Below the pieces are notes generated by a model that worked only from the letters and a program-made list of their open reading frames with translations, did not search any database and had not been told where the DNA came from. A stretch of DNA of 62,896 nucleotides, counting the filler, from Rhabdomonas costata (taxonomy: Eukaryota): assembly GCA_019059605.1 (NCBI GenBank). It is 50 parts of 50 records of this genome, joined end to end, with 100 filler letters (N's around TTAATTAATTAA, not from the genome) between each part and the next. Parts side by side here need not be neighbours in the genome. Positions count along the whole stretch, not along the records: positions 35,286 to 36,445 come from JAHMHO010025717.1; 49 more parts are not named here. One strand, given 5' to 3'. The position numbers and the translations under genes are program-made. Below are positions 35,732-36,258 of this stretch, piece by piece. The stretch's first letter is position 1; each line of letters starts with the position of its first letter.

Positions 35732-36258
35732 GATGCCTCGATCCCAATCTCAGCATCCCTCCCTACGTATGATGGTTCGGTCTCTCCACCGCATACGGTT
35801 ACGAGACCTCACCTTCTACTCCTACTCGCTACGCTCGTGTATGTTGATGGTTCGCTCCACCGCTGTCCCGGTTACGCTCACAAGACCAGGAGATAGCCAT
35901 GATGTCGGTCAGTCGATGCTACGCATCTCCTTCCCTCCTAAATGCGTGGTTCACTCACTCCCCGCTACGCGGTACGCTCGTTCACATCTAGATACAGAAT
36001 AGAGTCATGGTGATGTCGGCATGTCCTCCACTACGTTCCGGCCATGCCTCCTGTTAGAAATGCCCGCAAGGGGGTGTATGCTGGTCGATGCTCACTGCGT
36101 TCGCATCTCCCTAAATGTGATGGTTCACTCACTCCCCGACATAGGTCGGTACGTTCGTTCACATCTAGATACAGATGCATAGACGTCAGCATTCTCGGTG
36201 ACTCGAATGCTTCCTTGTATGCTGGCTCGCTCCACCGGCATAGGCCGCTTCCACTCAC
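35732..36258 (-). repeat. Array of five family-H G.A-mismatch hairpins with partner hairpins
   Basis: Main hairpins 35775-35812, 35850-35881, 35949-35985, 36123-36162 and 36225-36258. Partner hairpins 35732-35757, 35824-35838, 35915-35927, 36087-36107 and 36189-36210. Confidence 0.85.

Follow-up and report, generated by a model that had tools for sequence, protein, structure and literature searches.

A covarying, strand-specific double-hairpin repeat with conserved non-Watson-Crick motifs in Rhabdomonas costata

What kind of element conserves its mismatches and lets its helices change? The question is raised by positions 35732-36258 of a 62,896-nt stretch of DNA from Rhabdomonas costata (GenBank assembly GCA_019059605.1; hereafter, the window), where a preliminary description had reported, on the minus strand, five copies of a two-part hairpin whose stems differ in sequence and length and whose purine-purine internal loops stay the same. 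The window consists of 50 unrelated contigs of 1151-1168 bp each, joined by N44-TTAATTAATTAA-N44 linkers. According to its published description, the draft assembly was built with SPAdes after whole-genome amplification and has an N50 of 1194, a G+C content of 51.6% and 36,105 contigs of at least 1 kb (PMC8219788). Nine full copies (a to i) and one partial copy (j) of the first hairpin, here termed hairpin 1 (H1), lie on three of the 50 contigs, i.e. on ~6% of this random contig sample: the H1 cluster contig (35286-36445) and the contigs at 16369-17526 and 49140-50306. The second hairpin, located 3′ of H1, is termed hairpin 2. The H1 family is a real, strand-specific, covarying double-hairpin repeat without a named relative, and the interpretation first placed on it, that of a selected structure with a role at the level of DNA or RNA, is partly supported by the analysis that follows.

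Architecture, covariation and strand of hairpin 1

H1 measures 32-40 nt and the whole double-hairpin unit ~75-100 nt. Its lower part is a rod in which variable Watson-Crick steps alternate with a conserved tandem 5′-GA/5′-GA; this is followed by a 3x3 internal loop, 5′-GKA/5′-GGA, symmetric in all nine full copies, and by an apex composed of a CCG/CGG-based stem with a GTA or YTAT loop. The conserved portion of H1 is made up of the non-Watson-Crick motifs, and it is the stems that vary, to the point that a second tandem GA/GA takes the place of the central stem 1 pairs in copies c, d and i.

The five minus-strand copies of the cluster contig sit where they had first been placed, and the four examples then quoted are exact to the letter. 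Copy a (35775-35812) has a stem 1 of six Watson-Crick pairs (GGTCTC/GAGACC), a GTA/GGA internal loop, a stem 2 of four pairs and a four-base loop, and copy b (35850-35881) a stem 1 of only two pairs (GC/GC), a stem 2 of four pairs and a six-base loop. In copy c (35949-35985), the second tandem GA/GA within stem 1 is accompanied by one G.T wobble, and a GTA triloop caps stem 2; copy d (36123-36162) has a stem 1 of the same design, a five-pair stem 2 and a CTAT loop. The common design that had been claimed for all five copies is found, by the strict descriptor given below, in these four; copy e (36225-36258) is a variant, in which the internal loop reads GGA/GGA, stem 1 includes a T.G wobble, stem 2 is broken by a G.G mismatch and the sequence ends in GAGC. 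The contig at 16369-17526 carries copy f (16712-16745, plus strand, opposite to its neighbours), with three pairs in stem 1 (CAC/GTG) and five in stem 2; copy g (16914-16952, minus), with six pairs in stem 1 (ATGCCC/GGGCAT) and a G.T wobble as the first pair of stem 2; and copy i (16571-16609, minus), a second variant, with a GGA/GGA loop, a G.G mismatch in stem 2, a stem 1 reading C-GA-GC / GC-GA-G and a GTA triloop. Stem 1, GTA, a CTAT loop and GGA are retained in partial copy j (16783-16810, plus) on the same contig, whose stem 2 contains a G.G mismatch and which does without the outer GTGA/GAAC. Copy h (50122-50153, minus), on the third contig, has two pairs in stem 1 (AC/GT) and a stem 2 apex that resembles that of copy d.

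How often would such a fold be expected by chance? The strict descriptor (GTGA, a stem 1 of 2-8 bases with tandem G.A allowed, GNA, stem 2 with 3-6 pairs, a 3-7-base loop, stem 2′, GGA, stem 1′ and GARC) picks out seven separate elements of the window, where 200 dinucleotide shuffles give 0.01 on average and 1 at most, so that the fold is far more frequent than in shuffled sequence. Four of the seven lie in the cluster contig, and the others at 16712-16745 (plus), 16914-16952 (minus) and 50122-50153 (minus). A covariance model trained on the nine copies (R1) recovers all nine with E-values of 7.5e-25 to 2.1e-09 and gains just one partial copy (16782-16811, plus; E 0.0026), all remaining matches having an E of at least 0.23. 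Less specific tools say little: a permissive hairpin finder that accepts any purine-purine mismatch reports ~7 hairpins per strand in every contig and is hence uninformative, and in an all-against-all BLAST of the 50 contigs the family contigs are joined by short weak matches only, swamped by microsatellites. The hairpin 'grammar' belongs to the family contigs and not to the sample as a whole.

The stems covary beyond the controls. In the alignment of the copies (A1), 80% of the stem cells are paired versus 62.5% when shuffled, a value of 80% being reached in none of 500 shuffles, and changes on both sides of a pair are seen in 19 cells versus 8.0 in shuffles (again 0/500). When the partner column is slid by 1-3 positions, at most 48.9% of cells are paired and at most three show changes on both sides. 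RNAalifold, given no structure, returns six pairs, the whole of stem 2 and the two innermost of stem 1, four of the six with compensatory change. The point is perhaps best illustrated by stem 1 of copies a and g (GGTCTC/GAGACC versus ATGCCC/GGGCAT), where four of the six pairs differ, each on both sides. Nine of the ten sequences were found via the conserved motifs, so motif conservation is partly a matter of ascertainment; the shared linker and second hairpin described below constitute independent evidence of homology. The proposal of a structure under selection agrees with the covariation and the conserved mismatches, though the pairing may also be kept by exchange between copies or some other templated process.

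Could the complementarity of the arms be incidental? The clusters are embedded in low-complexity DNA rich in recurrent words, their modules reappear in shuffled order, the units are mosaic (see below), and a loosely defined G.A mini-hairpin is not enriched across the window (110 observed versus ~96 in shuffles). All this would fit cryptically simple, purine-rich repeat DNA that has no function and in which the arms became complementary through quasi-palindrome correction, template switching or conversion. We nevertheless regard such an origin as improbable. Templated copying of one arm into the other should erase the GA/GA and GKA/GGA mismatches, and precisely these are the most conserved parts; the excess of strict-descriptor elements over the shuffled expectation also speaks against it. 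Moreover, short perfect inverted repeats are not in excess, at 4.4 per contig versus 4.04 in shuffles over the 50 contigs, and the three family contigs hold 4, 7 and 0 of them versus 4.1, 3.8 and 1.8 when shuffled. No general hairpin-making process is indicated.

The fold is also strand-specific. G.T wobbles occur in stem 1 of copies c and e and in the first stem 2 pair of copy g, all other mismatches being purine-purine, and a G.T wobble on the sense strand becomes an A.C mismatch on the complement. In keeping with this asymmetry, each of the nine copies folds more stably on the sense strand than on the complementary one, with RNA and DNA parameters alike.

Hairpin 2 and the mosaic layout of the clusters

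Each copy in the cluster contig had been said to be followed by a second G.A hairpin, usually after a characteristic linker. A second hairpin does follow in all five cases; G.A pairs are present in only two of them, 36087-36107 and 35825-35837, and the others are plain stems on GATGC/GCATC-type words. The linker CCAYCA...TAGG follows three of the five copies there and five of the nine full copies overall; in those five, TAGG comes 8-9 nt after H1 and is succeeded by a G/A-rich run. The stretch at 36108-36122 (minus) is an example, in which CAYCA, a few bases, TAGG and a GA-rich segment form a conserved single-stranded connection between H1 and hairpin 2. Counting mini-hairpins, a second structure lies within ~45 nt after eight of the nine full copies, and after copy i there is no more than a minimal GCGCAGC hairpin.

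These second hairpins are diverse. All those in the cluster contig are on the minus strand. Hairpin 2 of copy a (35730-35759) has an eight-pair stem with GATGC/GCATC words; copy b is followed by a mini-hairpin (35825-35837) consisting of a single pair, a tandem GA/GA, GC/GC and a GTA triloop; hairpin 2 of copy c (35915-35927) is a GATGC/GCATC stem with a GTA triloop; that of copy d (36087-36107) combines a GATGC/GCATC stem with a tandem GA/GA, AC/GT and a GCA triloop; and that of copy e (36188-36211) has a seven-pair stem and a ten-base loop. A third hairpin at 36018-36048 (minus) follows the same grammar, with a six-pair outer stem, G.A, CC/GG, GGA/GGA, AC/GT and a GTA triloop. On contig 16369-17526, hairpin 2 of copy f (16749-16785, plus) has a seven-pair stem, GTGACGC/GCGTCAC, and that of copy g (16878-16898, minus) has its stem words reversed in order (GCATC...GATGC). 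Two mini-hairpins on the third contig, both on the minus strand, reuse modules of the cluster contig: the 13-mer at 50073-50085 is identical to 35825-35837, and that at 50172-50184, here upstream of H1, to the core of hairpin 2 of copy d (36091-36103).

The triloops themselves are enriched where the family resides. GCGTAGC occurs ten times in the window, seven of them in the three family contigs, and GCGNAGC 58 times, nine of them there, with control permutations of the motif occurring 20-34 times per window. Hairpins with C-GNA-G triloops amount to 3.67 per family contig versus 1.36 per contig elsewhere, and those with a flipped closing pair to 0.33 versus 1.60.

A separate observation concerns a possible alternative pairing. 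In copies a, b, g and i, the GGTGG of the 3′ half of H1 could pair instead with the CCAYC of the linker (35846-35861 and 16567-16586, minus), and the H1 fold could then not form. This pairing was rejected as a feature of the family; the other subfamily lacks it, and it may be due to chance.

How are the units arranged? The tandem array that had been proposed at 35286-36445 does not hold up: Tandem Repeats Finder reports none, copy spacings are 75, 273 and 102 nt, and the sole repeating units of the cluster are c and d, with a period of 174 nt. On contig 16369-17526, orientations alternate within 400 bp, from minus (16571-16609) to plus (16712-16745) and back to minus (16914-16952). Module order differs among contigs, the two identical 13-mers just mentioned being placed differently relative to H1 on the third contig. 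The layout is that of a loose mosaic cluster and not of a regular tandem array. Units c and d agree at 28/29 and 18/18 positions flanking the H1 apex; the apexes themselves differ, both are paired, and each apex type is also found in a copy on another contig. Units with identical flanks and different, paired apexes that are shared across contigs are mosaics, which points to exchange between dispersed copies.

Known classes and a reading as single-stranded DNA

Does the element belong to a class already described? The preliminary statement that it could not be assigned to a named family was borne out, there being no Rfam 15 match at the gathering threshold in the whole window. Permissive scans of the three family contigs (E up to 1-10) gave sub-threshold matches only: microRNA (miRNA) models at a palindrome (36308-36438) and two weak ones at 17011-17488. 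Among structured RNAs, kink-turns and box C/D RNAs place a tandem sheared G.A beside a three-base bulge, and the latter carry C (RUGAUGA) and D (CUGA) boxes. The tandem GA/GA of H1 lies within a continuous helix without a bulge, and neither strand of the array has a C/D box pair or a match to a small nucleolar RNA model; nor is an H/ACA layout seen in the array. SECIS elements combine an AUGA...GA quartet with a fixed helix of ~9-12 pairs followed by an unpaired AA(R); in H1 the distance from UGA to the next loop is 2 to 6 bases, the loop is GKA rather than AAR, and Rfam gives no match. The sarcin-ricin/loop E motif is an asymmetric AGUA/GAA bulged-G motif and is excluded because the internal loop of H1 is a symmetric 3x3. 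A tRNA scan returned no tRNA match, which disposes of a tRNA-like element. Among DNA elements, Helitrons terminate in CTRR at their 3′ end, preceded at 10-12 nt by a hairpin; TAGG stands 8-9 nt after H1 where the linker is present, and CTRR is never found there. A regular satellite is rejected on the layout given above, with no head-to-tail array and only c and d repeating. Finally, the nonconventional introns of euglenids, as characterized in PMC12501133, read 5′-N3-CDG ... CH′G-N5-6 followed by a purine, with paired ends; the stem CCG...CGG occurs in H1 on both strands and is excluded by this CDG/CH′G code. The available portions of the literature on euglenid repeats and satellites, on nonconventional introns with transposable elements and on double-hairpin elements contain no description of the element.

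Several known systems are nonetheless instructive as analogies. Bacterial REP/BIME (REPIN) sequences are non-coding palindromes, 20-40 nt long and imperfect, that keep a signature of unpaired or mismatched bases; they cluster in both orientations, form a hairpin on one DNA strand and go with a cognate RAYT (HUH Y1) transposase in the same genome. The H1 family likewise consists of short imperfect palindromes in clusters and in both orientations, three full copies and one partial copy alternating on contig 16369-17526, and its fold is strand-specific. It differs in being probably eukaryotic and nuclear, in its stems, which change from copy to copy where those of REP/BIME are near-identical, and in its architecture of a G.A-zipper rod plus a second hairpin. 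Mitochondrial double-hairpin elements (DHEs), such as the DHEs of Allomyces, the RHEs of sponges and the GC clusters of yeast, consist of two adjacent hairpins, are dispersed and clustered in non-coding DNA, and are presumed to be selfish and mobile. The H1 unit is similarly small, with two adjacent hairpins as one unit, and similarly dispersed and clustered in non-coding DNA, but DHEs rely on GC-rich Watson-Crick stems where H1 relies on conserved tandem G.A and GKA/GGA. Furthermore, the H1 contigs offer no support for the hint at a mitochondrial origin: mitochondrial genes are absent from the three family contigs, the cluster contig carries no gene, and the G+C content of the three is ~0.5, near the assembly average of 51.6% (PMC8219788).

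A third comparison is with minimal DNA hairpins. According to PMC13037366, GCGNAGC mini-hairpins are exceptionally stable as DNA, a stability that nearest-neighbour models miss, and are found at phage single-strand origins. Their sequence hallmark, GCGNAGC with its C-GNA-G triloop, is present in the family contigs, and sheared-G.A-closed C-GNA-G triloops of the kind known from d(GCGNAGC), phage G4-type origins and N4 promoters recur in the H1 cluster. The G4-type and N4 signals, however, are single phage or plasmid sites with a shown priming or promoter role (PMC13037366), whereas H1 is a multi-copy protist family of larger composite hairpins. The symmetric loops have a parallel of their own, as is evident from copies e and i and from the hairpin at 36018-36048, all with GGA/GGA. 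The human centromeric (TGGAA)n satellite forms a (GGA)2 purine zipper in which GGA stands opposite GGA with flanking sheared G.A; it is, however, a simple 5-bp satellite, unlike the 75-100-nt H1 unit with its covarying stems and lack of regular periodicity.

Might the contigs be foreign or artificial? A free-stem pattern, i.e. the conserved flanks with unconstrained stems, was used outside the window; it covers the class with a six-base stem 1 only, so relatives with stems of another length or with altered flanks would escape it. It gives 22 matches in metagenome contigs, 23 in prokaryote genomes and one in viral contigs, 46 in all, which is chance-level. Both stems are paired in 0/46 of these matches versus 4/4 matches in the window, and pairing is therefore not implied by the conserved flanks. 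The closest look-alike lies in an AT-rich stretch that by eye reads like bacterial protein-coding DNA. An amplification or assembly product, or contaminant contigs, would be in line with the whole-genome amplification that preceded the assembly (PMC8219788), and with the near-perfect palindrome with 50-nt arms, of the chimera type, in which the cluster contig ends. This we consider very improbable: the ten copies have diverged, are spread over three independent contigs and keep their asymmetric mismatches, while chimeras give long perfect inverted duplications; neither the 23 matches in 185,579 prokaryote species genomes nor the one viral match fold; the G+C content is like the assembly average; and long or coding-looking open reading frames are absent from all three contigs, hence not bacterial-like, the longest frame wholly inside a family contig being a low-complexity one of 184 aa (49279-49833).

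We tentatively favour, while giving it somewhat less than an even chance, the reading that H1 is a lineage-restricted dispersed double-hairpin repeat acting as a single-stranded DNA structure, analogous to REP/BIME or to organellar double-hairpin elements. Stable RNA tetraloops are typically of the GNRA or UNCG type. The occurrence of H1 in both orientations, its shuffled modules, its C-GNA-G and YTAT loops, which are not GNRA/UNCG, and the enrichment of triloops and GCGTAGC point to DNA rather than to an array of RNA genes. We infer that DNA is the folded molecule, that a protein recognizes it and that it is mobile. The fold would form on one DNA strand once it becomes single-stranded, be it in replication, in repair or in a rolling-circle-type intermediate, and a protein would read it as a structure. 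Such recognition might drive local copying or insertion, and exchange between copies would then yield the mosaic clusters. Functional parallels may be found in REP/BIME, in organellar double-hairpin elements, in the hairpin signals of HUH-type transposons and in single-strand origins.

What could be said in favour of RNA instead? Stems that covary around conserved bases, unpaired or non-canonical, are what is classically seen in RNA hairpins bound by proteins, and a transcribed cluster could present its hairpins as protein-binding sites in a non-coding RNA or an untranslated region; alternatively, the unit could be a new small-RNA gene. The euglenid lineage uses polycistronic transcription, and five iron-responsive elements in one mRNA tail provide an analogy. 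G.U wobbles would be confined to the sense strand. On the other hand, an RNA finds no match in Rfam, by gathering score or at an E of up to 1-10, except for a spurious miRNA match to an unrelated palindrome; it would lack a kink-turn bulge, a box C/D or H/ACA layout and a tRNA; its orientations would be opposed within 400 bp on contig 16369-17526 and its module order shuffled; and its triloops and YTAT loops are not among the stable RNA tetraloop types named above. We hold an RNA element to be rather unlikely.

The single-stranded DNA reading has, for its part, to contend with a number of findings that weigh against it. With RNA parameters, eight of the nine copies have the proposed structure as their fold of lowest energy. 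The minus strand of the 527-nt array has a z-score of -1.86 as RNA, better than 96 of 100 shuffles, as opposed to +0.23 for the plus strand as RNA and to +0.24 for the minus strand as DNA; the last value carries little weight because the DNA energy model barely credits G.A pairs. The five copies of the cluster contig all face the same way within 530 nt, an arrangement that a transcript would fit as well. Marks of mobility (a transposase, a target-site duplication, an empty site) and an estimate of copy number were not obtained from the window data, and copies of a mobile element usually share one stem sequence, when nearly every H1 copy has its own. Finally, the entire evidence consists of ten copies in ~3.5 kb of a fragmented assembly.

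Neighbouring sequence and significance

The DNA around the clusters has features of its own. The palindrome that ends 4 nt from the end of the cluster contig (36305-36441) is near-perfect, with 50-nt arms (92% complementary) around a 37-nt spacer; it attains its sub-threshold score with miRNA models only because it is a long hairpin, and it could be either an inverted chimera of amplified DNA (PMC8219788) or a real foldback. Adjoining the H1 cluster, positions 35400-35700 (plus) hold another family of words with a period of ~13 nt (GTAAGGTTGAWGCC-like), with its own small hairpins and an opposite-strand fold (families D2 and D10). On the third family contig, 49140-50000 (minus) is a T-poor, A/C/G-rich low-complexity region with GAGAC/ACAGA-type words and an 18-bp tandem repeat at 49734-49771. 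Elsewhere in the window, dispersed repeats of ~90-150 bp with 81-86% identity link otherwise unrelated contigs (22667-23826 with 54184-55348; 21407-22566 with 41584-42744; 2518-3677 with 59226-60384 and 42845-44003); at least two of these pairs adjoin (GT)n microsatellites, and they are probably interspersed repeats.

What is the significance of a hairpin family defined by its mismatches? Sheared G.A zippers, GNA triloops and GGA/GGA motifs have been well studied in oligonucleotides; to our knowledge, natural multi-copy families that combine them with compensatory changes in the stems are rare. Extended to the 36,105 contigs of 1 kb or more given in PMC8219788, the proportion of three contigs in 50 would mean thousands of copies, a figure that is an extrapolation and not a count. 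It is conceivable, if on the doubtful side, that the family represents a nuclear eukaryotic counterpart of REP, a miniature repeat conserving nothing but a purine-zipper DNA hairpin, present in thousands of copies and read on single-stranded DNA by a dedicated protein (an HUH-type nuclease, or a replication-priming or origin factor), or else, no less novel, a new class of abundant small RNAs whose structure relies on tandem G.A and GKA/GGA. As RNA, it would add a structured element to those known, one whose protein-binding motif is defined and testable. A fold read on single-stranded DNA, in turn, would make it a structure-defined repeat of a new kind, residing in a eukaryotic nucleus, through which replication, recombination or mobility might be approached in the euglenids, whose genomes are almost unexplored.

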